Origin: Trypanosoma brucei
Taxonomy: Eukaryota
DNA length: 64,000 nt
Direction: 5' to 3'
Assembly: GCA_000002445.1 (NCBI GenBank)
Contig: CM000208.1
Coordinates: 160,001 to 224,000, forward strand
The translations under genes and the position numbers were made by a program. The notes beneath the pieces are model-generated. The model made no database searches, was not told where the DNA came from, and saw nothing but the letters and a program-made list of their open reading frames with translations. Below, in pieces: positions 22,291 to 49,802 of the stretch. Position 1 is the first letter of the stretch, and each line of letters opens with the position of its first letter.

Positions 22291-25200
22291 ATGCCAAAGA
22301 AGAGTGAACCGGTCGCACCCGTCACCTCTGCGCGTTCCAGCTCACCCACTTGCAGGCCCCCTGTTCATCCAAGTTCTTTGGGGGAATGGGTAAATGATTC
22401 CGTTAATCAGGAGAATGTAAAGGGTGAGGCTGCCAACAGGTTTCATCCAGAGAGCATGCGGGGCGTAGACTCGCTTTTCTACCGACCACCTGTTCAACAG
22501 ATGAAGACCCCGCCACGTGGAGGTCCTCTTGGGGAGGTAAATGCGGACCCACTCGGTGAACTTGAGGCAATACTCACGTATGTGGAGCACGTTACCGTTT
22601 CTCTCACACGGCGCGAGCGCGTCTCTCCACCACCGGAATCCTTGCGCACGCTGCATGGCTCACTTGTCACGTTCCGTCGCGCGGTAAACACGTCGGACCG
22701 TGAGAGCACAACAAGGCGGGCACTCGCTGCGGAGCTTCACGACCAAGCGGCCACTTTACTTGCGTGGATTGCAAGACTGGAGTACGTATCGATTTCACAA
22801 AGCATTTCCTTAAGGGAGCTGGAGAAGGAGGTTGGTGCATCGGCAGCAAACATCGATGCTGTACTCGATGCCATAGAGGTGCGTTACCGCAATCACGACG
22901 TGGCGGATGTACAAGAGTTCTTCATGGGGAGCAGGGAGACTTTGAAAAGCTGCCGCAGCGCCGTCAGTGATCTAGTAGGAGGCGCACGTAAGGTGCTCGT
23001 GCTGCGTCGTGCTGTGGCCTCACGAGAAGCAGTGCGTGTTAAGGAGCTGTTTGGTGAGTATTGGGGAAACAAGGGCGGGGGAGGGACAGTGCGGATTGTA
23101 TGCCCGTTTGTTGATTGGGTGGAGAAGAGTTGGTTTCCTGCGATAGAAAAGTGGGAGGCGATCGTTTCGGGGGCAAAAAAGGAGGCGGAGTTGGGTGACG
23201 TTAAGGGCGCGTTCGCTCGCGCGCAGCGGCTGGCGTTGACGGAAAGCAGTATGATAGGTAAGATCATTCAACCCGGTGAGACGTTATCTGAACTCCTGCA
23301 CCAGTACCTGGAGGAGCCCCTTGCAGCGGTGGAGCAATCCCTAAAACGGAGGAAGAGCCGTATGGAGGCGTTGCGGGTGGCCATGACAACCAAGGATGGG
23401 AAGAGGTTGGCGGAATGTCTCTGTGCTGTCGAGGAGTTGCGCGCTGGAAAAGAACTGTCAGCCGAAGACACTGAACTAGCGGAGAAGGCAAGGAAGCAGA
23501 TTGTACATCTACAGCAGGTAGGGAATATAACGATGGCTTTGCGCTTGGCTGTTCAGGCGGGCGAAACGGTAACTCTCTTTCGTACAATTCATCAGGCGAA
23601 TGAGCTTTTGTTGCAACTTGGCATTGTGGGTAACCCCGAGGCCGGTGAAGAGACGGTTCAGCGCTGTAATACCTTGCTTAGGGAAATGCAGAATCTTCCC
23701 TCTGGAGTGTCGCTCACAGACTTCGTTGTGAAGCGTGTGAACCCTATGAAAATGAACCTTGCGCACGTGCCCTCGCACGTTTGGACGTCGGAAACAACGG
23801 CAGCGTACCAAGCGGCCTGGCAGCGGCTTGCTACCCGGGCGATGCAAGGTCTTTGTCGCTTTCAACACGAAAGTGATCCTGAATCTGATAGCGGTACTGC
23901 CCATGGTCTACACACAAGGAGCAATAGTGGGTTGAGTTGCGGGTCGCACAGCGTCAGGGGAGGCGGAAATGCGATCGCGGCGTTCACACGTACGCGGACT
24001 CAACAAACTGAGGTGGGAAATCCACAAAATGAATGGTCACATGTACAATTTGGTTCATGGGTCGAACCAGCAGCAAGCGAACGAGCACTAGCAGGAAGGG
24101 CGCGTTCCTCTGATGTGGATGGATTTAAGCTCAAGATCCACTTCGAGGCGCAGTTGCGCGTGCTGCGAATCCAAGGAACTGAAACGTGCACCTTTGATGA
24201 AGTGTATAAGAGGGTGCACGACTTGTGCACACAGCAGACGGCGCTGCATCATCGACCAGCGGGGCAGAAACTCCGGTTACGATATGAAGATGCTGAAGGA
24301 GACTGTATATCCCTGCTTACGCAGGAAGACTGGAACGTATTTATTAGTGAACAAGCACCTAGCGGACTGCGTGGTGCAAAACTAGAGATCTACTGTGACT
24401 TCCCGCCGGTACCCTCCCAAAGTACACTCGATCGTACGCCGCTTTCAACTACTTCAAAGGACGGAGGAAGCAGCCCAACCGTTAAGAATACCCCTCAGAC
24501 CACCACATCTGCGCGGTTAGCGACGGGCGGTACACAGATGAAACCGCTATTAGAGTCGGACCAAGCTAAGGGTGCCAAACCATCACGGTGTCAGAGTGCC
24601 GGCATTGCTCACCGTAGGGGAAATGGTGTTTCTAGATTAGTGTCGAACAGACGAGTTTCCCATGACGATTTCCATGTTCCGAAGCAGACTCCAAAAACGC
24701 CTGCAGGCATGGGAACTTCTGCAGATGGTGGAAAGGATGCGCTTGAGATTGGGGTCCCAAGAGACTTCGACGCAGCAGTCCACGAGAGGGAAGTGCCAAA
24801 AAGGATTGGCGCGGCACCTTCAGTGTCGTATACGCAACCTCGCGCGTTTCCTGTGAAGCAAACAACCTCCTCTGGTAACGCTATGCGTGTCTCACCTAAG
24901 GTTGGGAGGCCGTTGGGAACTGCAGCTGAAGCGAAGAAGTTACGAACCCCACCAAAGTTAGTTGGAGGTGACGTGAAAAATGCAGTGCGTGGAGCTGGAC
25001 TTGCGGGGAACCTGGCGGTAGAGGAACCGGTTGAGGCCATTGAAGCTAAGAAGTGGAAGGATGATGAGACGGGAATGGAGTCGGATGTTGTTACCTCAAC
25101 TATAAGCCAAGCACGAACCCCCATTTCGCAAAGGAAAGCTCCTTCCAGGGTGGTGTCTGCCATGAAGCAAACTGTCCCTAGAAGCGCAGTAACTGGGCAC

Positions 25201-25542
25201 CATGTCAATTCCCGCGTCAGAAACGCACCCGTGGGTGGCATACCGTGCGATGCAGCAGTGGTGGAAGAGAAGCGTGAGTGGAGTGTATACCATTTTAGGC
25301 CAAGTGAAATTCACCCCGTGGCGAACGATCGGGAGGAAACACCGCCGTCAGTGGGAAGTCGTGTAAAAGGTGCTCTCGTTACAGAGCGTTTAAGCGGTTC
25401 TAGTTCCACCTCCATCCCGAATTCGACAACAACCCTTAATGGTGGTGCCAAGAAGGCGGAAGCTCTGATTAGGTATAGACAACTACGCGAAGAAAAGCAA
25501 AGAGCTCTTAAGGCTGCTGTTCAGAAACGAATTAGTAAGTAG
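22291..25542 (+). CDS. Large hypothetical protein, 1083 aa, with a structured-looking N-terminal half and an S/T/P/G-rich, disordered-looking C-terminal half ending in a basic coiled-coil tail.
   Basis: A 3.25-kb ATG-initiated ORF on the same strand as its neighbours. No recognisable catalytic motif. Confidence 0.7.
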   Translation: MPKKSEPVAPVTSARSSSPTCRPPVHPSSLGEWVNDSVNQENVKGEAANRFHPESMRGVDSLFYRPPVQQMKTPPRGGPLGEVNADPLGELEAILTYVEHVTVSLTRRERVSPPPESLRTLHGSLVTFRRAVNTSDRESTTRRALAAELHDQAATLLAWIARLEYVSISQSISLRELEKEVGASAANIDAVLDAIEVRYRNHDVADVQEFFMGSRETLKSCRSAVSDLVGGARKVLVLRRAVASREAVRVKELFGEYWGNKGGGGTVRIVCPFVDWVEKSWFPAIEKWEAIVSGAKKEAELGDVKGAFARAQRLALTESSMIGKIIQPGETLSELLHQYLEEPLAAVEQSLKRRKSRMEALRVAMTTKDGKRLAECLCAVEELRAGKELSAEDTELAEKARKQIVHLQQVGNITMALRLAVQAGETVTLFRTIHQANELLLQLGIVGNPEAGEETVQRCNTLLREMQNLPSGVSLTDFVVKRVNPMKMNLAHVPSHVWTSETTAAYQAAWQRLATRAMQGLCRFQHESDPESDSGTAHGLHTRSNSGLSCGSHSVRGGGNAIAAFTRTRTQQTEVGNPQNEWSHVQFGSWVEPAASERALAGRARSSDVDGFKLKIHFEAQLRVLRIQGTETCTFDEVYKRVHDLCTQQTALHHRPAGQKLRLRYEDAEGDCISLLTQEDWNVFISEQAPSGLRGAKLEIYCDFPPVPSQSTLDRTPLSTTSKDGGSSPTVKNTPQTTTSARLATGGTQMKPLLESDQAKGAKPSRCQSAGIAHRRGNGVSRLVSNRRVSHDDFHVPKQTPKTPAGMGTSADGGKDALEIGVPRDFDAAVHEREVPKRIGAAPSVSYTQPRAFPVKQTTSSGNAMRVSPKVGRPLGTAAEAKKLRTPPKLVGGDVKNAVRGAGLAGNLAVEEPVEAIEAKKWKDDETGMESDVVTSTISQARTPISQRKAPSRVVSAMKQTVPRSAVTGHHVNSRVRNAPVGGIPCDAAVVEEKREWSVYHFRPSEIHPVANDREETPPSVGSRVKGALVTERLSGSSSTSIPNSTTTLNGGAKKAEALIRYRQLREEKQRALKAAVQKRISK

Positions 25543-26530: not shown

Positions 26531-27937
26531 ATGTCGTCCACGCCCGAGGTTGCGGATGCGCTCTTCCACGTGCGAAAAACGGGATTCGTAGATGAAACCA
26601 TGACGCAGGTGCTTGAGCAGCTTTTTGACTGCCCGCAGCATGGAAGGGTGTTGGAGACCTATATGAGGGGAAGGCACGAGGACATCTGCATGGTGCTGAT
26701 CAAAACGCTTGCAACTACGCATAATAAAAGCACTCTTGGTGTTCTGTTGCGGTTGTTTGCGGATCTCGCTCGATCGTCAACCGTAATGGGAAAGACGCTG
26801 GGACTGTGTTCATCAGTGCTGGTAGACCAGGAAGACCCCGTTCAGATGTTCCTTTACCTCGCCACCACACACAGTCGCGACCGAATGATTTCAGACCCCG
26901 CCCTGTATTTAGCTGCGACGACGTTGCGGTATGCCGATCCGAAGCTTAATGAGGAGTCGTTGGAGCGTTTCTTTGCTATTGTGAACGAGTCCCTTTCGGT
27001 TAACCCGTTACAGGTTGAAGCGGTTAGCTTTACAGTTCATAACTGCGCGATTATGGCCCACGCGAAAGCGCTACGCCACTACTTCTTTGACAACAAACTG
27101 GTGCAATACTTTCCACGGCTTCTTACTGACACCATAGGCGATGATGCAGCGAGTCTTGTTCAGTTGACATACGAGGTGCTGGTTGTGACGTGGTTACTCT
27201 CCTATGAGGTTGACGGGGTCGTCTCCCTGCAGGAACACAAGATGTTGCCACATATTCACCGTGTTATACAACGTATGCAAAAAGAGAAATGTATCCGCGT
27301 CGCGTTGATGGTCCTTTGGAATTTCGTGCAGGCGGAGCGCCAGTACATGGACGCAGTGACCAATCCTTCCGACGCCACATGGGTTTCGGACGAAATATTT
27401 AAACTTGCGCGAGTGAATGGAGGAAAGGGTCCCTCCTTTATTGCTGAGATGGTGGGTGTTGGAATGTTGAAGACGCTAACTCAGCTTGCTCGCCGTAAGT
27501 TTGGTGACGAGGATATAAGTGAACTCATACAAGACTTGCTGAATGTGCTTGAAAACAGCATGGAAACCTTAACTAGCTTCTCGGAATACCGTGGTGAAGT
27601 ACTTAGCGGGTCTCTTGAGTGGACTCCAGTGCACACCTGTGCGAAATTTTGGCAGAGCAATATTATGCAGTTTGAGAAAAACGGCTATGAGGTGCTGGAA
27701 GCATTGGGTAATATAATTATGAATTCCACCAACAGCCTTACTCTCGCTGTTGCATGCCATGACATTGGTGAGATTGTCCGGCATCACCCAACAGGCCGTG
27801 CGCTGCTGCAGTTACCGCAGTTGGAAGGTGTCATGGCTCGTGTTATGGAGCTGATGTCACACGAGACTCCTGAGGTAGCCAAAAATGCCCTTCTCTCAGT
27901 ACAGAAGATTATGGTTCAACGGTGGGAGTGCATTTAA
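26531..27937 (+). CDS. V-type proton ATPase subunit H (VMA13-like), armadillo-repeat regulatory subunit.
   Basis: The C-terminal region LTSFSEYRGEVLSGSLEWTPVHTCAKFWQSNIMQFEKNGYEVLEAL...IGEIVRHHPTGRALL aligns with yeast Vma13 (LTSFDEY..EL.S..L.WSP.H....FW..N...F.K.NY). Length 468 aa fits. Confidence 0.65.
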   Translation: MSSTPEVADALFHVRKTGFVDETMTQVLEQLFDCPQHGRVLETYMRGRHEDICMVLIKTLATTHNKSTLGVLLRLFADLARSSTVMGKTLGLCSSVLVDQEDPVQMFLYLATTHSRDRMISDPALYLAATTLRYADPKLNEESLERFFAIVNESLSVNPLQVEAVSFTVHNCAIMAHAKALRHYFFDNKLVQYFPRLLTDTIGDDAASLVQLTYEVLVVTWLLSYEVDGVVSLQEHKMLPHIHRVIQRMQKEKCIRVALMVLWNFVQAERQYMDAVTNPSDATWVSDEIFKLARVNGGKGPSFIAEMVGVGMLKTLTQLARRKFGDEDISELIQDLLNVLENSMETLTSFSEYRGEVLSGSLEWTPVHTCAKFWQSNIMQFEKNGYEVLEALGNIIMNSTNSLTLAVACHDIGEIVRHHPTGRALLQLPQLEGVMARVMELMSHETPEVAKNALLSVQKIMVQRWECI

Positions 27938-29599: not shown

Positions 29600-32500
29600 A
29601 TGAGCTGCGAAAGCAACGGAGATATTGCTCAACCAGTGGTAGAAAAGGTTTCGAGACTGATAATACGTGACATTGACGTAGAGAATTTCAAATCGTACGC
29701 GGGAAAGCACCGCATCGGACCGTTTCATAAGACATTTGCGACGGTTGTTGGACCTAATGGCTCCGGAAAGTCTAACGTTATTGATGCAATGCTCTTCGTG
29801 TTTGGAAAGAATGCGAGGAAGATCCGTTTGGAGAAACTCTCTGAACTTATTCATACCTCTGCGGCGCATCCAAATTTCACATATGCCTCAGTAACAGTGC
29901 ATTTTGTACGCTTACGCGAGAGTGCAGAACAGCAACGGGACCCGAACCAACGTGAGGAAATCCCAAACAGTGTACTTTCCATTAAGAGGGAGGTGTATAA
30001 AACCGGTGCCTCTCAATATTTCATTCAAGGCACCAGAACAACACAACGGGAGGTCGTGGAGACGCTCATCAAAGAGGGTGTAGACCTGGAACACAACCGG
30101 TTTCTTATTCTTCAAGGTGAAGTGGAGCAAATTGCGCTCATGAAACCTAAAGCAGAGCGTGAGGGTGAGGAGGGTTTACTTGAGTACCTTGATGACCTTA
30201 TAGGAACTAACGACTTTGCACAGTGCATATCAGAGGCGACACGGGAAGCGGAAGCGGCGCAACAACAGCGTTTAGACGCCTTGGATCGCGAGCGTAAGCT
30301 ACGCGCTGAACGGGAGGCGCTAGACTCCGCCAAGAATAGTGCGATAGAATTCGTCAAGAAAGACAATTTACAACAAAAGACGTTGATTGTACTCTGCCAG
30401 CTGAGGATGCAAGTTGTCGAAGAGAAGCTCGCTGAACCCCGTCGTCTTCTGAAAGAAATAGACAACCGTGTCGAAAAATTGAAGGTGACTGTGGATGAAA
30501 AAATGGCGGAGAAGTCAGCTGCTGAGGATGAGCTTCACAAACGGAAGAAAGAACTCGCTGAAGCAACGAAGGAGCGTGACGCAGCCCGTACAAAAAGAGA
30601 CGTTGCTCAGAAGGAGGTGGATCGTTTGAAATCCGGGGCCGATGAGCAGTCGAAGTCAAGGAAAGAAAAGGAAAAACAAATAAAAGATGCTGCAAGCGAC
30701 ATGCAAAAGGCTCAACTACAACAACAGGACGCGGATCGAGAGGCTGCCATCCATCAGCAGAATCTCAATGAAGCGCGAGAACAAGTAGAAAAACTTCAGA
30801 AAGAGTATGACGTCGCAACAGAGAGGTTTGTTAGCATCTTCACACCACTTCGCCAGGAGCTAGATAAGAAGAAGGCTGATTTTGCCCCATATGAAAAAGC
30901 TCTGGTGGAAGCAAAGGAGCAACTTGATACGGCCCAAAACCGCTTACAATTACTTGATGTTTCGGGGACGAAGCGGCAGGAACAGTTACATAACATTGCC
31001 TCTGCGTTACAATGTAACATGCGGCGTATTGAAGAAGTGGAGAGGCTCTTGAAAGGAGCTGATCCCAATAAATACAACGCGGAGCTAAAGGGTCTTCAAG
31101 AAACCCTTGCAAAAGCAGCAGAAAAGAAACACAGCATAAATGCTTCTATACAGGATATCAAGAATTCCTTTAGCGAAGGTGAAAGCGATGATCGGGCCGT
31201 TAGATTTCTTCTTCTGCAGCGCTCGCTCAAGGGCTACTATGGCACACTAAGACAACTTGGTCGCATTGATGACGCATACGATGTTGCAGCTGGTGTGGCA
31301 AGCAACGCGTGGTCTTATCACGTGGTGGAAGATCGGGAGACGGCAGCCAAAGCCCTCGAGTTGCTGCGCACGCATGACATTGGACGTGCCACAATGATTG
31401 TACTGAAGGAAATCGAACGGCAAATTGGAAACCGAATGGAAACACCCTTCACTTCACCAACCCCAAAGGCAAAGCGCTTGTTTGATCTTATTACCCCTGT
31501 CAATGACCGGTTCCGTATTGCCTTCTATCAGGCTTTAGGGAATACACTTGTGGTATCTGGTCTTACTGAGGCGCGTGAGGTGGCCTTTGGTGGTCCTCAA
31601 CGTTATCGTGTCGTAACGCTTCGTGGAGAGTTGGCAGAGCCCGGTGGGTCCTTAACGGGAGGCGGTAACACGCCACGTGGGGCGGGGCTGAAGGCAGCTC
31701 GACTTCCGGTAGACAAGGAGGCGGTGCGCGCAACTCTTCAAAACTTGCAAGCAGAGCTGGTGGAAGCGGCTCAAGCCGAGTGCGACGCCCAGAGTAGAAT
31801 ACATGAACTACGCGAAAAGCAGCGGCACCTCAATCCTGCTCAGATATCGCAACTTCATGTGGAATTAAACACGCTTCGTGTCACCGTGGAAGCGGATTCG
31901 CAGCGCCAGGCTCGGATAGAGCGGGAAATTAGGGAGGCTTCGCAAGAGAACGAGAGGAAACGGAGGGCGCTGGAGTGTGCTGTCGAGGAAGCAGAAAGAC
32001 AGCTTGGTGCCGCAGAGAAGTCTCATATCAAGCACCGTAGTGCACTGGAAGAACTCGAAAACAAAATTGACAACGTTGGTGGACTTGAATACAAGGCGCT
32101 ATGCCAGAACCTGAAGACCCAACAGGAACGGGTGGAGGCAGAAGACAAGGCCCTGCGGGAATGTCGGCGATTATCACAGCGTCTCCGTGCGACGCAAGAA
32201 CGCAAAGAGCGAGATATTGCGCAATACAACGAAGATCTTAATCGCATTCTTGCTGAGTCTTCTGGTGAGTTGGAGGCGGCGCTTGTGACGGCGAAGGAAA
32301 TAGCGGAGGAGGTTACGCGGGCATTCAAAGGGGCAGAGATGAGGTTTAACGACGCCCAGTTGGCTCTGGAAGGTGCAAAGGCAGCTGTACCAGTGGCACA
32401 TAAGGCTTTGGTTGAGGCTCAGAGACGGTTAGACGATGAGGACCGATTTCGACAGATAGAAGTGGCTAAAATGGCTGATGCTTTGCAAGAGTTGGCGAAG

Positions 32501-33700
32501 TTTGAGCAGAAGATTGATGGTTGTGAAGAAAAAATTAGGGAAAACGTAGATTTTTATGGCATAGAAACTCTAGACCTCAAAGATAATGAAGAAGAAAGAA
32601 GAGACGAGGACGAAGAGAATGACGCAGTAAATGCAAACGATGAGTCTGCTTCTCAGGACGCGGAGGGGGATGGTCGTAGTGATAACGGCGCAGACGATGT
32701 TCTCTCTCAGGACCGCGAAGAGGAGAAGGTGGATGTGAGGAACATGACTTTTCGACTTTCGGCAGAGCAACTGTTGAACTACAATTACGACGAATGTGTG
32801 CATAAAGCAAAACTACTGAGTGAAGAAGCCAAGAGGTTGAATAATATGATCGACTTCCGTGCGGTTCGGCTGTGGCGTGAGCGCGATGCTGAGCACCGCA
32901 AGGGGAAGGCTGAATATCTTCGAATAAGGGAAATATCAGATGCGGCCGACCAGCGGTTGCAAAAGTTGAAGGATGAACGCAGGGACTGTTTCATGGCGTG
33001 TTTTGTTCGTGTTCAAAATCGTTTGCGTGAAGTTTACCAACTGCTTACACACGGTGGTGACGCGGACTTGGAACTTGTTGATGCAAATGATCCCTTTGAA
33101 GGAATTCAGTTTGTTGTTCGACCCCCGAAAAAGTCATGGAAGCAGATTTCCAACCTCTCTGGTGGTGAAAAGACTCTGTCGAGCTTAGCACTTATTTTCG
33201 CGCTGCACGACATTAAACCGACACCGATTTATGTCATGGATGAAATAGACGCCGCACTGGACTTCCGCAACGTTTCCATTGTTGCAAACTACATCCTTCG
33301 TCAAGCCAGTGGTGCGCAGTTTATCATCATTTCTCTCCGAAACAACATGTTTGAAATGGCTCATCAGCTCGTTGGTGTTTTCAAACGGTCAGATGTGGCT
33401 CGTACGGTGGGTATAAATCCAGTCGTTTTTCAGCAAAAGGTGTTGAGTGTTCTTCAGGAACGCAAACGCAAAAGGACGGGTTCAACAGGAGATGTGCAAA
33501 TTAAAGTAGAAGATAAAGTTGCATGTAACAACGAAGCCGCTGACATCCTCGTAAGCAGCAGAAGTGCCAGCAGGTGCAGGTCTTCAGTGCCGAGAGCCAA
33601 AACAACACCAAAGTCTTCTCAAAAGGGTAGTGGAAAAACTCCGAGGAATTGTGGGGTTGCCGCAAATGGAGTTCGTTTGAAGGTAGAGGAAGATGCCTAA
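29600..33700 (+). CDS. SMC4: Structural maintenance of chromosomes protein 4 (condensin subunit), 1366 aa.
   Basis: The N-terminal FKSYAGKHRIGPFHKTFATVVGPNGSGKSNVIDAMLFVFG (Walker A) is SMC4-like. The hinge is LKGYYGTLRQLGRIDDAYDVAAGVA. The signature motif LSGGEKTLSSLALIFAL and Walker B IYVMDEIDAALD are present, with long coiled-coil arms. Confidence 0.9.
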   Translation: MSCESNGDIAQPVVEKVSRLIIRDIDVENFKSYAGKHRIGPFHKTFATVVGPNGSGKSNVIDAMLFVFGKNARKIRLEKLSELIHTSAAHPNFTYASVTVHFVRLRESAEQQRDPNQREEIPNSVLSIKREVYKTGASQYFIQGTRTTQREVVETLIKEGVDLEHNRFLILQGEVEQIALMKPKAEREGEEGLLEYLDDLIGTNDFAQCISEATREAEAAQQQRLDALDRERKLRAEREALDSAKNSAIEFVKKDNLQQKTLIVLCQLRMQVVEEKLAEPRRLLKEIDNRVEKLKVTVDEKMAEKSAAEDELHKRKKELAEATKERDAARTKRDVAQKEVDRLKSGADEQSKSRKEKEKQIKDAASDMQKAQLQQQDADREAAIHQQNLNEAREQVEKLQKEYDVATERFVSIFTPLRQELDKKKADFAPYEKALVEAKEQLDTAQNRLQLLDVSGTKRQEQLHNIASALQCNMRRIEEVERLLKGADPNKYNAELKGLQETLAKAAEKKHSINASIQDIKNSFSEGESDDRAVRFLLLQRSLKGYYGTLRQLGRIDDAYDVAAGVASNAWSYHVVEDRETAAKALELLRTHDIGRATMIVLKEIERQIGNRMETPFTSPTPKAKRLFDLITPVNDRFRIAFYQALGNTLVVSGLTEAREVAFGGPQRYRVVTLRGELAEPGGSLTGGGNTPRGAGLKAARLPVDKEAVRATLQNLQAELVEAAQAECDAQSRIHELREKQRHLNPAQISQLHVELNTLRVTVEADSQRQARIEREIREASQENERKRRALECAVEEAERQLGAAEKSHIKHRSALEELENKIDNVGGLEYKALCQNLKTQQERVEAEDKALRECRRLSQRLRATQERKERDIAQYNEDLNRILAESSGELEAALVTAKEIAEEVTRAFKGAEMRFNDAQLALEGAKAAVPVAHKALVEAQRRLDDEDRFRQIEVAKMADALQELAKFEQKIDGCEEKIRENVDFYGIETLDLKDNEEERRDEDEENDAVNANDESASQDAEGDGRSDNGADDVLSQDREEEKVDVRNMTFRLSAEQLLNYNYDECVHKAKLLSEEAKRLNNMIDFRAVRLWRERDAEHRKGKAEYLRIREISDAADQRLQKLKDERRDCFMACFVRVQNRLREVYQLLTHGGDADLELVDANDPFEGIQFVVRPPKKSWKQISNLSGGEKTLSSLALIFALHDIKPTPIYVMDEIDAALDFRNVSIVANYILRQASGAQFIIISLRNNMFEMAHQLVGVFKRSDVARTVGINPVVFQQKVLSVLQERKRKRTGSTGDVQIKVEDKVACNNEAADILVSSRSASRCRSSVPRAKTTPKSSQKGSGKTPRNCGVAANGVRLKVEEDA

Positions 33701-36400: not shown

Positions 36401-37459
36401 ATGCAGAAATGTTTAGTCATACGTCATGGCAGGCTTAGGTTTCCACTGGGAAATGGGAGTACTAGCCGTTACCTCACAGTTGGCCGCGATTTGCTTCCCC
36501 TCATCCCCAGTAACGAAATTTATCATGATCCACCGAAACTCCGTCATCGTCTTGACAGGGACGGGTATCTTTATTTTAAAAGTATTGTCCCACGAGTGAC
36601 AGTAAGTGCAGCTCTCGATAATCTTAGGCTGCAAATGACCGCATGTGGTTGGACTTGTGAGGAGGACCATAAGCGCATGTTGGAGCGTAGTGGCGGTGTG
36701 GCATTAGGTTTGCCATTTCCTTCTACAGGGAAGCTTCCACCACCGCAAATAACATACACGGACTCACTTCGAGCTGCGGTGAGCGGTACGAGTGTCATGG
36801 CGCTTGTGCGACAAGTGTTTGGTGGAGCAGTTCGTGTGTGGGACATACAGTCTGTACATCTTGCGGCTCCTCAGGAATCCTTTGGATTACGTATGCCAAG
36901 TGTATATATGAATAGAGGGACAAAGTTGGCCATCATTGCACTTGTGCCATTACACGACACGCCAATGCACATGGGTACACCAGTCATTGTGAAGGGCAGT
37001 AATAGCAGCGACACATATGCTGCGTTACGGAGTTCCTATGGTCAACACGATGTAGAAGGTGATGATATTTGTGGCGATGGCTGCTACACAGATGACCCTG
37101 ATGAGTTGCTGCCGTTAGGCAAACAGCTCGGCATAGATGAGGTGACTGGCCGCCGCATAACAGTGGACGTTAACCCATTTCTTTCAGTGGCTGTTGAACC
37201 GGGAGATGTTATTCTTTTAACAGTTTATACGATGCATTCCTTTCTCACCAATACAACCGACTGCTGGCGTATCATGACGGAGGCGGTGTGGACTATGGAA
37301 GGCGATGATGTTGGTCCTGATCCCCGTTACGTTGGTAGCAATGCACCGGGGCTTAATAAGTGGTGTAGCGAGCGTGACAACAGGAAGAAATACCCGCGAA
37401 CCATGAACGAGGCGAAAAAGGCTTGGGGGTTAGTACCAGATGCCCCATCCACCATATGA
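36401..37459 (+). CDS. Phytanoyl-CoA dioxygenase (PhyH)-like 2OG-Fe(II) oxygenase family protein; tentative.
   Basis: An ATG-initiated 352-aa ORF. C-terminal PGDVILLTVYTMHSFLTNTT resembles the PhyH family ending (G..L.F.....H.S..N.S). A candidate HxD lies in VPLHDTPMH. No stronger motif was found. Confidence 0.45.
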   Translation: MQKCLVIRHGRLRFPLGNGSTSRYLTVGRDLLPLIPSNEIYHDPPKLRHRLDRDGYLYFKSIVPRVTVSAALDNLRLQMTACGWTCEEDHKRMLERSGGVALGLPFPSTGKLPPPQITYTDSLRAAVSGTSVMALVRQVFGGAVRVWDIQSVHLAAPQESFGLRMPSVYMNRGTKLAIIALVPLHDTPMHMGTPVIVKGSNSSDTYAALRSSYGQHDVEGDDICGDGCYTDDPDELLPLGKQLGIDEVTGRRITVDVNPFLSVAVEPGDVILLTVYTMHSFLTNTTDCWRIMTEAVWTMEGDDVGPDPRYVGSNAPGLNKWCSERDNRKKYPRTMNEAKKAWGLVPDAPSTI

Positions 37460-38314
37460 ATCATGTTTTTTTATTTTATTTTTTATTTTATTTTTATTTT
37501 GGGGGGGGGACTCTATGGAGTGGGAATGGATGGGTTTTCTTCACCATGTAGTTTAAACGCGATGCAACTTTGGCTTGCGTTACTCAAGGAGACGTCTCGT
37601 ATGTTTTACAGGCAATATATGCGTGACTGCCTCGTCTAGATTGTTTTTGGTGTTTCTTTATATATATATATATATATATTTTGGTGGAAGGTGGGGGAGG
37701 AAATCATTGTTGGGAAGAAGGGAGGTTAATGGAAGTTCCACCACGTCTCGTCATTTTTGGAAATTTTTTTTTCTTATCGATGCGAAATACCACCGCACTA
37801 TTTGCCTACGGTGATGGTGTAGTTGTATATTTTCCCCTACTTCCAGATATGCTTGTTTTATTTTACATTTGTGTAGGTAGATAATGATGAGGCTGCTGGA
37901 CGCAGCAGTGATGTGAAGCAGAGTAAGCGTAAGATAAGGTTAATACGAATTATAATGGTGTTTCGTTGATTTGTGGTTATCAGCAATAAGTTTCTGACGA
38001 GTACGAAATTTTGAGAGGTTCCATTGCACTTTTCCTTTTTTTCTTTTGTCTTTTGCATGCTAGTTTTATTTAACCGGTGTAGGTAACGCAACACATTGCA
38101 GTGACGAGATTCGTGCATTGTGCTGCCAGTGCACGCGGTGGTTTACATAAGCAAAATAATAACATTAGCGGAAGAAGAACCAAGAGCGTTTGGAGGCCAA
38201 CTGACTTTACCAAGTGTGGTGAAAAGGAATAGGCTCAAAGGATATCGTTGTAGTTAACGTAAAAGTGAACATAAGCTTACGTGTATAGTTCAAAGCGCCA
38301 CTTATCGTTGCGAC

Positions 38315-40213
38315 ATGCATCGCCAGCGCCGCCTTGTGCGTGGCCTTCTTTCAAATTCTTCTTCTCAAATGTTGGGATGCCGACCTTTTTTTGGAATGAG
38401 TGGAAGGGGCAGCGGTGGTGCCGGGGGTCGTGGGGATTCGGGAAAAGAAGGGGAAGTTGGAGGGAAAGGATGGTCAGGGCTGTTTAGCGGTGCAGGTGGA
38501 TTGCCACCGGGATTTGACGAACAGAGGTTGAAGGCAGTTCAAGAAATATTTAATAAACAGTCCCCTGAGAAGCAAGCGGAGCTGATGAAAAAGGCACTCG
38601 AGTTCCAAAAGGTTTTTGGGAAGGTCCCGGGGATTGGTAAAATGGCGCAGAAAAATATTGAAATGTTGGAGAAGGTGGTGATTAACAACTCCAGCCAGCA
38701 GCAACAACAAACACCTCCAAAGGCGAATGGAATCCGCAGCATGTCTGGGGCTGCTGAAAGGGAAAATAAGGCAAAAATAAAGTCGTCTAATGAATCGACA
38801 GCAGCCGGCTCCGCGAGAATCTCGGGGGGTGCTGCCGGACCCACCATTGACGAACTGAAGAAAATTAACTTGGGACCCGAGATTGAGGAGCTTTTCGCCG
38901 AGCTCTCCTCGATAAGGGCAAAGAAAAATTCTTATCGTAGTAAATTCCTCGCTGCTGAAACAGATCTTGAGAAGTTGAGGAAAGAGGTTGAACAGTTGCG
39001 TGAGACAGACGCTAGTCTCCGGTCAAAGCTGCGTCGAGTGGAACAAGATGTTATGCTTCTCAATTCTGAAAACATGGAATTGAAAGAACATGAAAAAGAA
39101 TGGAGACAGGTAAGGCACAAAAATGAGAAACTGACAGACGCAGTGCAGCGACTTCAACATGATAATGCGGCGCAAGACCGTCAGCTCAGCGAGGCCCTGC
39201 AAGTGCAGCTAAAGGAGAAGGATGATATGTTACGGTCGCTGCAACGAAAACTTGACAGACTCAGGAAGCGGGATCCACTTCTTCAATTTTCACTTCTCTG
39301 TAGTGACGTGGCACGGCTGTGTGATACTGAACAAAATGCCGCTAAGGATGCAGCTGAGGATGCCTTTAACATGCTGCAGGGAATTCACCAACAGAAGCAA
39401 GACGCTGCTTGGAAGTCAGCTATGTTACAGGATGGTGCAGCAGCGAAAGCATTCATGGCAGTGGTCCGCCGTTTTTACTTGAGTCGTGTTCCACATGCAA
39501 ACTATGATGCGCTTGTTGCGGTGGATGATGCGGAAGCGCTCCGACCTCTTGTGAGTGAAATGGGTTTCACTTTAGAGCATGTGGCTGCCGGTCGTTATGT
39601 CATCGTCGCTCCCTCTGTTGAGGTGCCCAAAACTTTTATTGGTCCGTACGGGCTGTGTGCTGCTTTATATCTTGCAGGGAAATCTGTAGAAGGAGAGAAA
39701 ATGTTTTCCTTTAAACTTACTGTTGTGTATCCACACGTAAGCTCAACTCTGTTTGGAAACACGTGCAGGACGGGGGTGCAGTATGACACGGCGAGGTCTA
39801 GCGGACCTGGTGGACAGGCCGTTAACGTTTCGGAGACCCAAATTATCGCAAAGTTGTCTATTGATGGCGATGCGGCTTATACCGCAGAGGCACAAGATTC
39901 TCGCAGTGCACTCAACAATCGGGAGGCTGCCACCGAGAAGTTGGCTAAAACAAGGCGTCAGCATTACAACGAACAACTCGCGAAGCAGCACAAGCCGGAA
40001 GGGTTAGAACGCGAATTAGTTGCTGTCGTACAGTCCACTCTTAATGGAAACGGTAGTAGTGGAAGTGATGGGATGGTGGGCCCCGTCCCCAAAGAGATTG
40101 TTGAGTTGGTAAATGACACTGTTGCCAAGAAATTGCTGCCTGGCGCAGAACTGGGGTTGCTGTACGGTATGTTGTATTTGTTTCGTGAGGCGGCGGCCGC
40201 TGCCTCCTCATAG
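38315..40213 (+). CDS. GGQ-motif (RF-1 / peptidyl-tRNA hydrolase ArfB-ICT1-type) domain protein with a long N-terminal Gly-rich and coiled-coil extension, predicted mitochondrial.
   Basis: RSSGPGGQAVNVSETQIIAKLSIDGDAAYTAEAQDSRSALNNREAATEKLAK is a canonical RF-1 domain GGQ loop plus helix (nt ~39790-39960). The N-terminus MHRQRRLVRGLL reads as a presequence. Residues ~180-330 are heptad-rich. Confidence 0.7.
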   Translation: MHRQRRLVRGLLSNSSSQMLGCRPFFGMSGRGSGGAGGRGDSGKEGEVGGKGWSGLFSGAGGLPPGFDEQRLKAVQEIFNKQSPEKQAELMKKALEFQKVFGKVPGIGKMAQKNIEMLEKVVINNSSQQQQQTPPKANGIRSMSGAAERENKAKIKSSNESTAAGSARISGGAAGPTIDELKKINLGPEIEELFAELSSIRAKKNSYRSKFLAAETDLEKLRKEVEQLRETDASLRSKLRRVEQDVMLLNSENMELKEHEKEWRQVRHKNEKLTDAVQRLQHDNAAQDRQLSEALQVQLKEKDDMLRSLQRKLDRLRKRDPLLQFSLLCSDVARLCDTEQNAAKDAAEDAFNMLQGIHQQKQDAAWKSAMLQDGAAAKAFMAVVRRFYLSRVPHANYDALVAVDDAEALRPLVSEMGFTLEHVAAGRYVIVAPSVEVPKTFIGPYGLCAALYLAGKSVEGEKMFSFKLTVVYPHVSSTLFGNTCRTGVQYDTARSSGPGGQAVNVSETQIIAKLSIDGDAAYTAEAQDSRSALNNREAATEKLAKTRRQHYNEQLAKQHKPEGLERELVAVVQSTLNGNGSSGSDGMVGPVPKEIVELVNDTVAKKLLPGAELGLLYGMLYLFREAAAAASS

Positions 40214-40792: not shown

Positions 40793-41314
40793 ATGTATTT
40801 TTGCCACGGCTGCCAAAACTTCCACACTGGTATTGGAGCTTCCGAGCAACTGACTCAGTGCCAAGCGTGTCAGTCCCCTTTAATTGAGAGAGTATACAGC
40901 CATGGACAAATGAATGAACTCTGTGCTTTATACGGACTGAGACACATAACGATTCATGAGGACAGTGAAGTGGATGAAATTTTGCATCTCCTTCAGTTTT
41001 TGCAGTCAGCTGAAGAAAGGGCCGCACGTCACTCGAGTGCCACAAATAACGCCATTGTTGAAGAGCTCATGCGCACATTTGTTAGTGCTGCCGAGGAATC
41101 GCGATCCGAACCACCAGAAGCAATGGGCCCTTTTTCATGCCGCATTTGCCTCGATTCGGACGATTTGGATGATATTCAAGTGGCACAACTGCCGTGTCAG
41201 CACCGTTATCACGCAAACTGCATTCGGTCATGGCTGCAGAAAAGTTTAGTTTGTCCCTTATGTCGTGCCTCAGTCCTCCCTGCATCCACAGCAGACACGA
41301 ACACCACAGCATAG
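40793..41314 (+). CDS. RING-H2 zinc finger protein (probable E3 ubiquitin ligase) with an N-terminal Cx2C...Cx2C zinc-ribbon-like segment.
   Basis: CRICLDSDDLDDIQVAQLPCQHRYHANCIRSWLQKSLVCPLCR fits C-x2-C-x15-C-x-H-x2-H-x2-C-x10-C-x2-C. The N-terminus has CHGC...CQAC. Confidence 0.8.
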   Translation: MYFCHGCQNFHTGIGASEQLTQCQACQSPLIERVYSHGQMNELCALYGLRHITIHEDSEVDEILHLLQFLQSAEERAARHSSATNNAIVEELMRTFVSAAEESRSEPPEAMGPFSCRICLDSDDLDDIQVAQLPCQHRYHANCIRSWLQKSLVCPLCRASVLPASTADTNTTA

Positions 41315-45306: not shown

Positions 45307-46527
45307 ATGCATCCGGAAATTGAAGCACTCAAGCGACGTAATCGCGCCGCGGGAAAACGGCTGGTGCCTATTGAACCTGATCATACCAACAGGCAATCGC
45401 GTTCCACTTCCTGCAGTGTGAGGCGTAATGGTTCCATTTCTTCACTTACCGCTCGAACCCCTCAAAGTCTCGAACAATCTGCTGAGCGAGTTCATGAGGA
45501 ACGCAGACAAGTTAGCAGTTTAACATCGCGGTTTACAGCAACAGCACCCATTTCCGTCAACAAATCGTATAACAATAGGAATGATGGAATGTACACGGTG
45601 GCTAATGGCCGTATGGGGCAGAAACCTCAGTTATCCATTCCAAGAGTACCAGCAAGGCCACCTGTGGGTGTTCGTGGTAAAACTCGCAATAATTTAGGAA
45701 GTTTTGTTAGAACCCCGACCAATGGAGAAGATCCCGTTGCGTGTGTGAGTGGCCCCGCTGTGGCAAATGTGTCGAAGGTTGGAAATAAAATATCTCCGGA
45801 AATGTGTCACATGCCATCTAGTGGGGGCCTCTCCAGTACTTCTGTGCACCCAGCGGAAAAAGACGTAATTGAAGAAGAGTACCGACAACACGTGGAAGAA
45901 AGCTTAAATGACGGAGATGAGGTATCTTCTCTTGGGGGCCATCTCGCCAAGCATGAGTTTAAGTCTGTACCAGATCATATTCGTAGGATGCTGGAAGGAG
46001 ATAGAATAGAAGAACCGTATACAACAAAGCTTTGGGAACAGATAAATACGGACGAGGGGCGACGAACTAATGGCTATTACGAATGCATCCGCTGCGGTAT
46101 GCCTTTGGTGTCACCTAAGCACCAAATACGTTTTTTCACGCGCGGTATTGCAGCGTTTTCGCTTATGCATTGGGACGGCGTGGAGGTGCGTGTTGGAGGC
46201 GTTGCTTCTTCAAACAACAAATCGAAGAGTCGCGGCACCTCAGAGGCACTTCAGTTGCAGGTGCGTTGTAAATGTTGCTCAGGTTTTGTTGGCATTCTTG
46301 TGCCCGATCCAGAAGGGGAACCCCGCAATATATTTGTTGTGAACAGTTGCTGTTTGAGTTACGTGAAGGATAAAACAACACGGTGTAAACTCAGTAAACC
46401 GTGTGGTGCTCACGGAGATGACGGTGATGGAAGCGGAATGAAGCGATTAAATAGCCGAAACAGCAGGGCCTCTGAAGGTGACGTAGAGATAGATTTCAAT
46501 GACCCAGATATATTCGAGATTGATTAA
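45307..46527 (+). CDS. Hypothetical protein, 406 aa, with a C-terminal Yippee/Mis18/MsrB-type (beta-tent) zinc-binding domain; the N-terminal ~250 aa look disordered.
   Basis: YYECIRCGMPLVSPKHQIRFFTRGIAAFSLMHWDGVEVRVGG ... VRCKCCSGFVGILVPDPEGEPRNIFVVNSCC gives two CxxC pairs about 60 aa apart, with spacing and flanks like Yippee (YSCxxCRxHLA...GRAYLFNSVVNV...IYCENCKTTLGWKY). Confidence 0.5.
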   Translation: MHPEIEALKRRNRAAGKRLVPIEPDHTNRQSRSTSCSVRRNGSISSLTARTPQSLEQSAERVHEERRQVSSLTSRFTATAPISVNKSYNNRNDGMYTVANGRMGQKPQLSIPRVPARPPVGVRGKTRNNLGSFVRTPTNGEDPVACVSGPAVANVSKVGNKISPEMCHMPSSGGLSSTSVHPAEKDVIEEEYRQHVEESLNDGDEVSSLGGHLAKHEFKSVPDHIRRMLEGDRIEEPYTTKLWEQINTDEGRRTNGYYECIRCGMPLVSPKHQIRFFTRGIAAFSLMHWDGVEVRVGGVASSNNKSKSRGTSEALQLQVRCKCCSGFVGILVPDPEGEPRNIFVVNSCCLSYVKDKTTRCKLSKPCGAHGDDGDGSGMKRLNSRNSRASEGDVEIDFNDPDIFEID

Positions 46528-47990: not shown

Positions 47991-49802
47991 ATGGGGGCGG
48001 AAAAAAAAATAAATCGTCCCACCAACTCTGGTGAGGTTGCAGAGAATGTTGGCGCATTTACAGAGGTGATGGTACCGGTATGGAGTCGACTTTGTGACAA
48101 AGTTATCGCAGCCTACAAGGCAGGTGAAGATATTGTAGTATTACAGCATTTTGAGGAACTGCGGGCAACACCCGAGCTTGATGTTATTGCGCATGATTCG
48201 CTCATATCTGCTGCTCCCGACCTCACAGTTGGGGCGGTTGAGAAGAAAGAAGATGATAGAGCTGCTAAGAAAGAAAGGTTGGAATATTGTTGGGGGCGCG
48301 CACTTCTCTCTGCTAGGCACTTGGCAGGAGACGATGATGAACACATTAACAGCATCGTGGAAAGTTTTGAGCAACAGTTTGGATGCGTCTCCGGGTACCT
48401 TCGCGCTCTAGCTATAAACGCTGAGAGCGCACTGGAGGTGCTTCAGTTATACCAAATGATGGAGGGTCCGGTAACCACGAGGGTTGCCACTGCTGCTCTG
48501 CACCGGTTTTTAACAAATGACGCCAGTGAAGTTTCTGGACTGTTGCAGTTCCTGAAGTTGAATAATGTTCCACTGACACGTGAGTTTCATGATCAACTGG
48601 AAAAAAATTTTGTCATGCGTATGAAAACGGAGGATGCTGAGGAAGTCTTTAAGGACATGCGTAACGCTGGCGTGGAGCCAGTTAGTACACATCCGTATAA
48701 CTTTATTTTCATGAAAACACCCCCGTTTAAGTACATGGATCTTCTTGATTACTACGAGGACATGCTGGATCGCGGTATCGTGCCTATGAACTCCACCTTC
48801 CGCATTCTCAGCAGACAGACACAAAACGGGGGTTTGGTGAACCAACATTTTAGTGCTCTTGCGAGGGGGACGACTACGGGATCCGATCGTCGGCATGAAA
48901 CTGAAGGGCACGGCGGGACGCAGGCTTTTTTTGCCACACGCCTTGAGGAACTCGCTCGTTTGAAATCCAGTACAACTTTAGATGATGCTCTGCGCGTGCT
49001 CCGGCGTATGGACGTTGAGGGTACGCCATTAATTAGTGGCTCCGTTGTACTCAACGTCTTATTGTCCGTATTCTGCCGTGCAGGGCACATCGAAGACACG
49101 GAGCGTGTGCTTCAATTAGCAAAGGAGCGCGGATGTACTCCCAATGGTGCAACGTTGTCTAGGGTTTTAAAGAAGAGTAATGCAGACCGCTTTCTTCAAG
49201 CTGAGCTTATCCTACCAGACGCACTAGAAGCAGGTGACGTACGGTTAAGCGACATCACTGATGTTATGTGTCACTTCTTCAATAATGGCATGCGTAGTCA
49301 AGTAGTGCGTATACTCCGTGCATATGTTGTCCGTTGTTATCGCAACCCCACCGAGTCGATTCCCCACACCGTTGCCTTATGGGCGTTGCGACTGGGTCCG
49401 TTTGATTGGGCACTGGGTTTTTTAGCAATATTGCTTGCATCCAATGATGAGCCACTTAGCGATCGAATTCAACGGCGCATGCACGAAGTTGTGAAGGAGA
49501 ATCGAAGTCGTGAGATTCTTAAGGTTCTGGAGGGACACAAATGGGACCGCCGCAGTATTTTGCTCGCACCGCAGCTTCAAGAGCCAACAAACAGCAGCGA
49601 TGGCGCTGGTGAAGTTAATGGGCGCAGCAGTGAAGGAGGTAACAGCGGGGGTGGACATCATCGTCGCGACATGGGCCCGTCATGGATGAGTGCCATGCAT
49701 TTGGTACTAAAGGAAATGGGTGTGGAGAAGGAAGTACTGATGGGATATAAGGCGAAACTTTCGGCTCTCATTAATGATGCGAAAAAGAAGCGTGATAATT
49801 AA
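47991..49802 (+). CDS. Pentatricopeptide repeat (PPR)-containing protein, probable mitochondrial RNA-binding protein, 603 aa.
   Basis: Helical-repeat protein. VLNVLLSVFCRAGHIEDTERVLQLAKERGCTPNGATLSRVL is a textbook PPR unit, and several weaker units lie upstream (DSLISAAPDL..., YQMMEGPVTTRVATAALHRFL). Confidence 0.6.
   Translation: MGAEKKINRPTNSGEVAENVGAFTEVMVPVWSRLCDKVIAAYKAGEDIVVLQHFEELRATPELDVIAHDSLISAAPDLTVGAVEKKEDDRAAKKERLEYCWGRALLSARHLAGDDDEHINSIVESFEQQFGCVSGYLRALAINAESALEVLQLYQMMEGPVTTRVATAALHRFLTNDASEVSGLLQFLKLNNVPLTREFHDQLEKNFVMRMKTEDAEEVFKDMRNAGVEPVSTHPYNFIFMKTPPFKYMDLLDYYEDMLDRGIVPMNSTFRILSRQTQNGGLVNQHFSALARGTTTGSDRRHETEGHGGTQAFFATRLEELARLKSSTTLDDALRVLRRMDVEGTPLISGSVVLNVLLSVFCRAGHIEDTERVLQLAKERGCTPNGATLSRVLKKSNADRFLQAELILPDALEAGDVRLSDITDVMCHFFNNGMRSQVVRILRAYVVRCYRNPTESIPHTVALWALRLGPFDWALGFLAILLASNDEPLSDRIQRRMHEVVKENRSREILKVLEGHKWDRRSILLAPQLQEPTNSSDGAGEVNGRSSEGGNSGGGHHRRDMGPSWMSAMHLVLKEMGVEKEVLMGYKAKLSALINDAKKKRDN

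Follow-up and report, generated by a model that had tools for sequence, protein, structure and literature searches.

Tb927.10.770 of Trypanosoma brucei, a Kinetoplastid-Specific Mitochondrial GGQ-Domain Protein with a Long Coiled Coil and a Candidate Role in Mitoribosome Rescue

Identification of Tb927.10.770 as a GGQ Protein

The 64,000-nucleotide window analyzed here (the whole stretch, to which all positions refer) is part of chromosome 10 of Trypanosoma brucei brucei TREU927. The gene Tb927.10.770 in this window (38315..40213, + strand) is a nuclear gene for a mitochondrially imported, kinetoplastid-specific protein that clearly belongs to the RF-1/GGQ superfamily (PF00472) and is a putative peptidyl-tRNA hydrolase. 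With a probability of roughly 0.55, we propose that this protein acts on the mitoribosome as a specialized, codon-independent rescue or quality-control hydrolase; the catalytic activity, the ribosome binding, the codon independence, and the rescue role are what we infer. The gene is a single unbroken open reading frame (ORF) that starts with ATG and comprises 632 amino acids (aa) and a stop codon, exactly as given in a preliminary description of this DNA, and its product is identical (100%) to T. brucei TREU927 XP_822335.1/EAN77507.1, which is UniProt Q38CG3, annotated as "hypothetical protein, conserved". Q38CG3 is listed as Tb927.10.770, with the old identifier Tb10.70.7440 (Peikert et al. 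2017 supplement, PMC5436138). The RF-1 domain had already been flagged by UniProt and TriTrypDB, and the function is uncharacterized.

Conservation of the GGQ Domain

The Pfam RF-1 model (PF00472) covers aa 488-560; the match (E = 2.6e-9) reaches 37.5 bits, the gathering cutoff being 35, and is significant but marginal, and profile positions 83-116 are unmatched. The same model matches all 27 orthologues tested (best E 3.5e-11), and the GGQ peptide quoted in the preliminary description, RSSGPGGQAVNVSETQIIAKLSID...EKLAK, is indeed encoded at nt 39794-39949; the domain announced there is thus real, with its position at aa ~481-560 rather than 500-600. A profile of 15 orthologues retrieved human mtRF1 (7nqh), T. 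thermophilus RF1/RF2, E. coli RF1/RF2, and PrfH from the PDB with E values of 7e-8 to 3e-5, the best PDB sequence match being mtRF1, whereas C12orf65 (7a5h_C) was found at E = 0.022 and ArfB/ICT1 at E = 0.05-0.4.

The GGQ domain (aa 481-560; 39755..39994, + strand) comprises the strands 486-494, 508-516, and 519-526 and the helix α7 (532-558). In the AlphaFold2 model, the GGQ loop sits between strands 486-494 and 508-516, and β2 and β3 are joined by a tight hairpin at 516-519. The codons of the catalytic tripeptide G499-G500-Q501 lie at 39809..39817 (+ strand) and are followed by the invariant Ala502, as read from the translation and the alignment; the residue after GGQ is Ala in 59/59 family sequences. 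Thirteen positions, R494, P498, G499, G500, Q501, A502, N504, E507, T508, Q527, R530, S531, and N535, are invariant from Trypanosoma to the bodonids, and the GGQ is also kept in Perkinsela and Papus. With a mean conservation of 0.75, the domain is the most conserved large block of the protein. The invariance of the GGQ and its flanks argues for retained catalysis.

It is scarcely credible, in our view, that the GGQ domain is a relic without ribosomal function, carried along in a coiled-coil scaffold that serves some other mitochondrial process. The marginal RF-1 score, the low structural similarity to release factors (RFs), and the fact that non-RF sequence, with highly conserved motifs of its own, makes up over half of the protein would fit such a relic, but the conservation of the domain as a block and the invariance of the GGQ tripeptide and its RF-conserved neighbors in all orthologues examined, including the very divergent prokinetoplastids, speak against it.

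Relationship to Release-Factor Subfamilies

The subfamilies cannot be told apart by the GGQ core alone: hhalign gave 98-99% probability for ArfB, PrfH, RF2, and RF1 alike, and the mean BLAST scores, which differ by a few bits between GGQ subfamilies, are not discriminating either. At E ≤ 1e-4, the subfamily models matched the 27 orthologues to very different extents, with 27/27 for RF2, 25/27 for PrfH, 25/27 and 19/27 for two RF1 models, and 1/27 for ArfB. Upstream of the GGQ domain, the alignment extends for RF2 alone; for 23 of the 27 orthologues, the alignment to the RF2 hidden Markov model (HMM) begins no later than aa 470. The HMMER alignments to solved RF2 structures begin at aa 460-464, and that to E. 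coli RF2 begins at profile position 409. The hhalign alignments with RF2 cover 162-177 columns, in which NYDALVAV corresponds to the LEIxAG strand, GPYG to GxxAYG, and FSFKLTVVYPHV to HTSFASVxVYP. The RF2 loop GVHRLVRxSPFDxxxKRHTS aligns with the short non-conserved linker LAGKSVEGEKM, and in the domain layout a short linker at aa ~456-462 takes the place of the recognition hairpin; a conserved PxT/SPF tripeptide was not found, and the PKT at aa 437-439 is unconserved and lies upstream of GPYG.

The alpha/beta domain (aa 392-480) without the GGQ domain aligns with RF2 in the same register, weakly, with a pairwise P of 0.0077 and an HH probability of 5%, and shows no similarity to RF1, PrfH, or ArfB. 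A search of the PDB with the profile of the alpha/beta domain retrieved no RF, and the PCRF domain (PF03462) was detected in 0/27 orthologues at E ≤ 0.01. The curated full-length models reached 31.2 bits vs. 370 for prfB, and 20.5 and 27.0 bits vs. 423 and 400 for prfA. The best supported ancestry, although not proven, would be one from RF2, in which domain 2 has degenerated and the SPF/PxT loop has been deleted. Part of what the preliminary description called an extension of ~400 aa would then seem to derive from RF domain 2 and not to be newly added sequence.

The class given in that description, an ArfB/ICT1-type hydrolase, had to be abandoned, because the protein has neither the inserted helix nor the basic tail and ArfB is the worst-fitting subfamily model. 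With the ArfB model NF006718, whose cutoff is 100 bits, the score is 15.4 bits over 24 aligned residues, only one of the 27 orthologues is matched, and the tail is acidic. The family-specific helix of ArfB/ICT1 lies between β2 and β3 (Duarte et al. 2012), and the ArfB alignment requires a 22-residue gap where this helix sits; the ArfB HMM alignments end at aa ~523. By these comparisons, Tb927.10.770 is more RF2/PrfH-like than ArfB/ICT1-like. It falls outside canonical RF1/RF2, ArfB/ICT1, C12orf65, and PrfH, and is best described as a kinetoplastid-specific GGQ protein.

One observation weighs against the RF2-type ancestry. The Ala after GGQ, present in 59/59 members of the family, occurs in just 2/106 of the best non-family matches, and one of the two is the C12orf65-like P0109. 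This rare residue is consistent with an action on split large subunits, in which Tb927.10.770 would be an analogue or divergent descendant of C12orf65/MTRFR, the GGQ would free peptidyl-tRNA on the free large subunit (LSU) of the mitoribosome, and the coiled coil and the N-terminal modules would replace MTRES1 in clamping the tRNA and the LSU. In humans, MTRES1 is a separate protein with this clamping role beside C12orf65. Like C12orf65, Tb927.10.770 lacks the ICT1-specific helix; the profile alignments to human C12orf65 and P0109 continue beyond helix α7, and the 19-nm helix would roughly match the length of the LSU interface. Nevertheless, we consider such an action unlikely: the E value for C12orf65 (7a5h_C) is 0.022 vs. 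~1e-7 for RF1, RF2, and PrfH, P0109 comes only 19th in the ranking by BLAST score, an acidic tail stands in place of the basic C-terminal helix characteristic of C12orf65 and ArfB, and the domain-2-like module, if real, suggests a contact with the decoding site of the small subunit.

The same module bears on whether the protein is a release factor that depends on a stop codon or another signal, read by new elements in the manner of human mtRF1 for AGA/AGG, with the signal being a codon or a context in edited mRNAs. The seemingly retained domain-2-like module, mtRF1 as the best PDB sequence match, and the constraint on the alpha/beta-domain residues D398, A399, G417, G443, P444, and P473, all invariant, would be in keeping with signal reading. 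However, the recognition hairpin and the α5 tip region have no counterpart, there is no PCRF signal, and no orphan stop codon is known in kinetoplastid mitochondria. The stop codons used there, UAA and UAG, are both read by TbMrf1 (PMC5865105), and we regard a signal-specific factor as highly improbable.

A codon-independent hydrolase of RF2-type origin would also have an evolutionary implication. The loss of mitochondrial RF2 in kinetoplastids is thought to be tied to the change of UGA into a tryptophan codon. Tentatively, and without expecting it on balance, we suggest that kinetoplastids rebuilt rather than lost mtRF2, and that Tb927.10.770 may be a neofunctionalized mtRF2 in which the stop-codon loop was deleted and a ~19-nm coiled coil and docking motifs were gained, yielding a codon-independent rescue or quality-control hydrolase for a mitoribosome confronted with many partially edited and aberrant mRNAs. 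Mitochondrial RF2 was described as lost in kinetoplastids by Duarte et al., a statement that needs qualifying if the RF2 affinity is real.

Distribution among Kinetoplastids

A word-indexed search returned 28 full-length relatives, every named one of which is a kinetoplastid. When 1.84 billion cluster representatives were searched exhaustively with an HMM, 34 clusters were obtained at E ≤ 1e-30; the next matches, separated by a gap, were generic RF-1 domains at E ≥ 6.6e-8, and no named member lay outside Kinetoplastea. The named members come from Trypanosoma, Leishmania, Leptomonas, Phytomonas, Strigomonas, Cryptobia borreli (Parabodonida), and Papus ankaliazontas and Perkinsela (both Prokinetoplastina). 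The architecture with a GGQ domain behind a long coiled coil is, in these searches, found only in kinetoplastids.

The N-terminal extension is conserved in the full-length kinetoplastid orthologues, a point raised in the preliminary description. The Cryptobia and Papus sequences, taken from transcriptome assemblies, run from the N-terminal region through the GGQ domain, and these transcript-derived orthologues thus place the extension and the GGQ domain on one mRNA and in one protein. The N-terminus as a separate upstream gene was rejected, since the ORF is unbroken and the C. borreli and P. ankaliazontas transcripts carry both parts.

The gene is kept in Perkinsela, a highly reduced endosymbiont, in which the protein has 519 aa, the aa 68-128 module is unaligned, and the C-terminus is divergent. 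From this divergence, the conserved core can be taken as the motif at the start of the coiled coil, the coiled coil itself, the alpha/beta domain, and the GGQ domain. SS-K-PGGQ replaces SS-G-PGGQ in the Papus (P0056) and Perkinsela (P0063) sequences and in one metagenomic ENA member (P0027). The family members of T. grayi (P0003), T. conorhini (P0004), and Strigomonas culicis (P0023) bear the name "type 11 methyltransferase" in NCBI and UniRef; the Pfam scan of 27 family members found no methyltransferase domain, and the name is probably a propagated misannotation.

Mitochondrial Import and Native Size

The preliminary description had proposed mitochondrial targeting, and published proteomics bears this out. 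Q38CG3 appears in the ATOM40-dependent importome tables at 69.1 kDa with 20-33 peptides and 40-44% coverage (Peikert et al. 2017, PMC5436138); it also belonged to an earlier mitochondrial proteome set and is positive in both TargetP and MitoFates (PMC5436138). In native size-exclusion chromatography (SEC) of a procyclic lysate on a SEC300 column covering 8 kDa-1.2 MDa, Tb927.10.770 was found in fractions 1-10 of 47 (Crozier et al. 2017, PMC5724185), which overlap the fractions 1-13 of the mitoribosomal MRPS15 (PMC5724185). This elution, toward the megadalton end of the column, indicates that Tb927.10.770 is present in very large or very elongated species.

Elution with very large assemblies would also suit a protein with a chiefly structural or assembly role in the mitoribosome or in some other large complex of the matrix, comparable to the mammalian built-in subunit ICT1/mL62, with catalysis secondary at most. 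The long helix and its conserved flanking motifs resemble scaffold-binding elements, and kinetoplastid mitoribosomes and their assembly intermediates contain many repurposed enzyme folds, which counts in the same direction. We nevertheless find a structural component a distinctly unlikely explanation, even less likely than the MTRFR-like action on split large subunits. Despite the solved T. brucei and Leishmania mitoribosomes and intermediates, no chain in the PDB (2026 copy; poly-UNK chains lay outside this search) corresponds to Tb927.10.770 or an orthologue, and the protein is therefore unmodelled in the solved kinetoplastid mitoribosomes and assembly intermediates. Q38CG3 is missing from the Zikova 2008 lists, which cover the affinity-purified mitoribosome, editing, and MRB1, and a retained active site would be expected to show just the strict invariance that the GGQ and its flanks have throughout Kinetoplastea. 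Tb927.10.770 is also missing from the Gazestani complex map and from the TrypTag supplement files examined.

Proposed Function and Significance

The characterized mitochondrial GGQ factors of T. brucei are TbMrf1 and TbPth4 (PMC5865105). In bloodstream forms, TbMrf1 knockout together with TbPth4 RNA interference is cytostatic and leads to loss of the FoF1-ATPase (PMC5865105). This double-loss phenotype indicates that Tb927.10.770 is not a redundant general release factor there, and it fits a specialized role. In the literature, we found no main-text mention of Tb927.10.770, Q38CG3, or its accessions, and no description of a third trypanosome GGQ factor.

In the codon-independent rescue or quality-control role that we favor, the GGQ domain would enter the peptidyl-transferase center of the mitoribosomal large subunit and hydrolyze the ester bond of peptidyl-tRNA. 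Hydrolysis would proceed without stop-codon reading, because the PxT/SPF loop and a recognizable PCRF are missing. Lineage-specific docking or substrate sensing, either on the protein-rich mitoribosome or on a partner, may be provided by the ~19-nm coiled coil with its invariant flanking motifs, together with the degenerate domain-2-like module and the acidic helices at the C-terminus. The role would be a specialized one, in which translation complexes that are stalled or aberrant are rescued or quality-controlled, and not one in general termination.

Translation termination and rescue in kinetoplastid mitochondria have so far been known from two factors, TbMrf1 and TbPth4, in an organelle whose messages are RNA-edited and whose ribosome is highly divergent and rich in protein. 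A third GGQ protein of these mitochondria, unique in architecture, conserved throughout Kinetoplastea, and not found elsewhere, is a candidate for the quality control of unedited, partially edited, and non-stop transcripts. Being parasite-specific, it could serve as a selective drug target, and it may illustrate the fate of a release factor after stop-codon reassignment. As the function is one that we infer and the domain was already flagged in databases, the interest of the finding is moderate.

Architecture of the Protein

The layout was derived from AlphaFold2 on the 27-sequence alignment together with conservation and composition statistics, and a separate AlphaFold2 sub-model of aa 335-632 reached a predicted local distance difference test (pLDDT) score of 88 and a predicted template modeling (pTM) score of 0.81. 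All features below are on the + strand. The protein begins with a basic mitochondrial presequence, MHRQRRLVRGLL... (aa 1-27; 38315..38395), with a net charge of +5, no acidic residue, and a conserved M-x-R-R start. This is followed by a Gly-rich segment (aa 28-67; 38396..38515) with 17 Gly, which is predicted to be disordered (pLDDT <50) and has a mean conservation of 0.37. A conserved three-helix module, QPPEKQxEMMKQALExQK...KIPGxGKLAQKN (aa 68-128; 38516..38698), consists of the helices 69-81, 84-101, and 108-128 with a conservation of 0.60. For the N-terminal modules (aa 62-205), a profile search of the PDB gave no match, and Pfam and NCBIfam returned nothing beyond generic coiled-coil or SMC-like matches, so that the three-helix module is without detectable relatives in these searches. 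A low-complexity linker (aa 129-174; 38699..38836; pLDDT <50, conservation 0.33), the length of which differs among orthologues, connects it to the motif GPTIDELKKINLGPEIEELFAEL (aa 175-197; 38837..38905).

This motif marks the start of the long helix and has the highest mean conservation outside the GGQ loop (0.88), with P176, L181, L186, G187, E189, I190, E191, L193, F194, E196, and L197 invariant in the alignment. Residues 188-318 (38876..39268) are predicted by AlphaFold2 to form one 131-residue α-helix, a coiled coil that would be ~19 nm long if straight. Its core hydrophobics show a heptad (3.5-residue) periodicity of 2.39; shuffled versions average 0.19, and 0/2000 shuffles reach the observed value. 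The matches of this helix in Pfam and NCBIfam are all of the coiled-coil type. At the C-terminal end of the coiled coil lies the conserved basic motif RKLDRLRKRDPLLQFS (aa 311-326; 39245..39292), in which R311, K312, R315, R317, and D320 are invariant; the conservation of aa 319-335 is 0.79.

The region of aa 336-480, a helical part and an alpha/beta domain, is predicted confidently and packs with the GGQ domain in the sub-model. Long helices (aa 335-391; 39317..39487), including the helix of aa 340-391 with a pLDDT of ~90, pack onto the alpha/beta domain (aa 392-480; 39488..39754), which has a beta-alpha-beta-beta-alpha-beta order and may be a degenerate RF2-type domain 2. Beyond the GGQ domain, acidic C-terminal helices (aa 561-632; 39995..40210) take the place of RF domain 4; they span 561-578, 593-604, and 611-631 with a pLDDT of ~90, and this segment has 5 K+R and 9 D+E (net -4). 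The basic presequence, the Gly-rich stretch, and the heptad coiled coil had all been recognized correctly in the preliminary description. Its view of the extension holds in that ~485 aa with Gly-rich and coiled-coil parts precede the GGQ domain, but it overlooked that aa 336-480 are predicted to form a folded domain.

Gene Start and Neighboring Genes

A polypyrimidine tract followed by AG is read from the sequence at 38029..38063 (+ strand), ~250 nt 5' of the ATG, and is a plausible candidate for the spliced-leader acceptor by the general trans-splicing signals of trypanosomes. A second in-frame ATG occurs at 38396 (Met28, MSGRGSGG...), and three Logan-assembly members (P0032-P0034), which fall into the same 90% cluster, have 605 aa; the difference of 27 residues agrees with initiation at this second ATG. 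The conservation of an M-x-R-R...R-R-x-F-F N-terminus in the orthologues favors the first ATG as the start of Tb927.10.770.

Every long ORF in the window has the + orientation, in keeping with a single polycistronic unit. The same polycistron contains genes for a PB1-domain protein (22291-25542), V-ATPase subunit H (26531-27937), an SMC protein of 1366 aa (29600-33700), a SelR-like protein (45307-46527; weak match), a PPR protein (47991-49802), and a WD40 protein of 1719 aa (57408-62567), which also carries a FAZ1 conserved domain and a coiled coil. Gene adjacency in trypanosomes carries no operon meaning.

Upstream of Tb927.10.770, a 352-aa ORF (36401-37459, + strand) without a Pfam match appears, judged by its position, to be Tb927.10.760 (Q38CG4). 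This protein is also in the mitochondrial importome, with twin Cx3C motifs listed (PMC5436138). Its mass is 29.9 kDa in one supplement table and 38.9 kDa in another, a mismatch suggesting that the annotated start may differ from the start of the ORF. After this ORF, the intergenic region 37460-37700 contains a long T-rich tract (~37465-37500), a G10 run (~37500-37510), and a (TA)n microsatellite (~37664-37680). Downstream, a 173-aa RING-H2 ORF (40793-41314, + strand) fits the published description of Tb927.10.780. The latter has been reported as a constitutive partner of TbUbL1 in the nucleus-mediated quality control of mistargeted mitochondrial proteins (PMC9163028), and its mRNA is bound by ZC3H11 (PMC3616968).

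Comparison with Known Systems

Compared with RF2 (PrfB/mtRF2a), Tb927.10.770 lacks the SPF motif, the recognition hairpin, a detectable PCRF, domain 4, and similarity in domain 1, and carries an extra N-terminal region of ~335 aa with the 131-residue coiled coil. The plant mtRF2c/pRF2c, described by Duarte et al., differs in being shortened (257 aa), limited to land plants, and free of an N-terminal coiled-coil extension. PrfH is a bacterial protein of ~200 aa without a coiled coil, which rescues damaged ribosomes together with RtcB; Tb927.10.770 scores 29.1 bits with the PrfH model TIGR03072 (cutoff 166.65), and the alignment is confined to 77 columns of the GGQ domain, the upstream domain being dissimilar (P = 0.57).

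ArfB (YaeJ), ICT1 (mL62), and TbPth4 share with Tb927.10.770 a very similar GGQ loop, RSSGPGGQxVN, and a presumed codon independence, but they possess the inserted helix and a basic mRNA-channel tail, both missing from Tb927.10.770. TbPth4 (Tb927.6.2500) is a separate gene on another chromosome. C12orf65/MTRFR (mtRF-R; Pth3 in yeast) resembles Tb927.10.770 as a mitochondrial GGQ protein with neither codon recognition nor the ICT1-specific helix, the latter being absent from its GGQ domain (PMC3472500). The two proteins also have the rare GGQ-Ala-x-Asn signature in common, and the helix starts in a similar way in both (SRSALxNKE(A/L)A). In contrast, C12orf65 has ~160 aa and a strongly basic C-terminal helix, whereas Tb927.10.770 has 632 aa, an acidic C-terminus, and an alpha/beta domain upstream of the GGQ domain.

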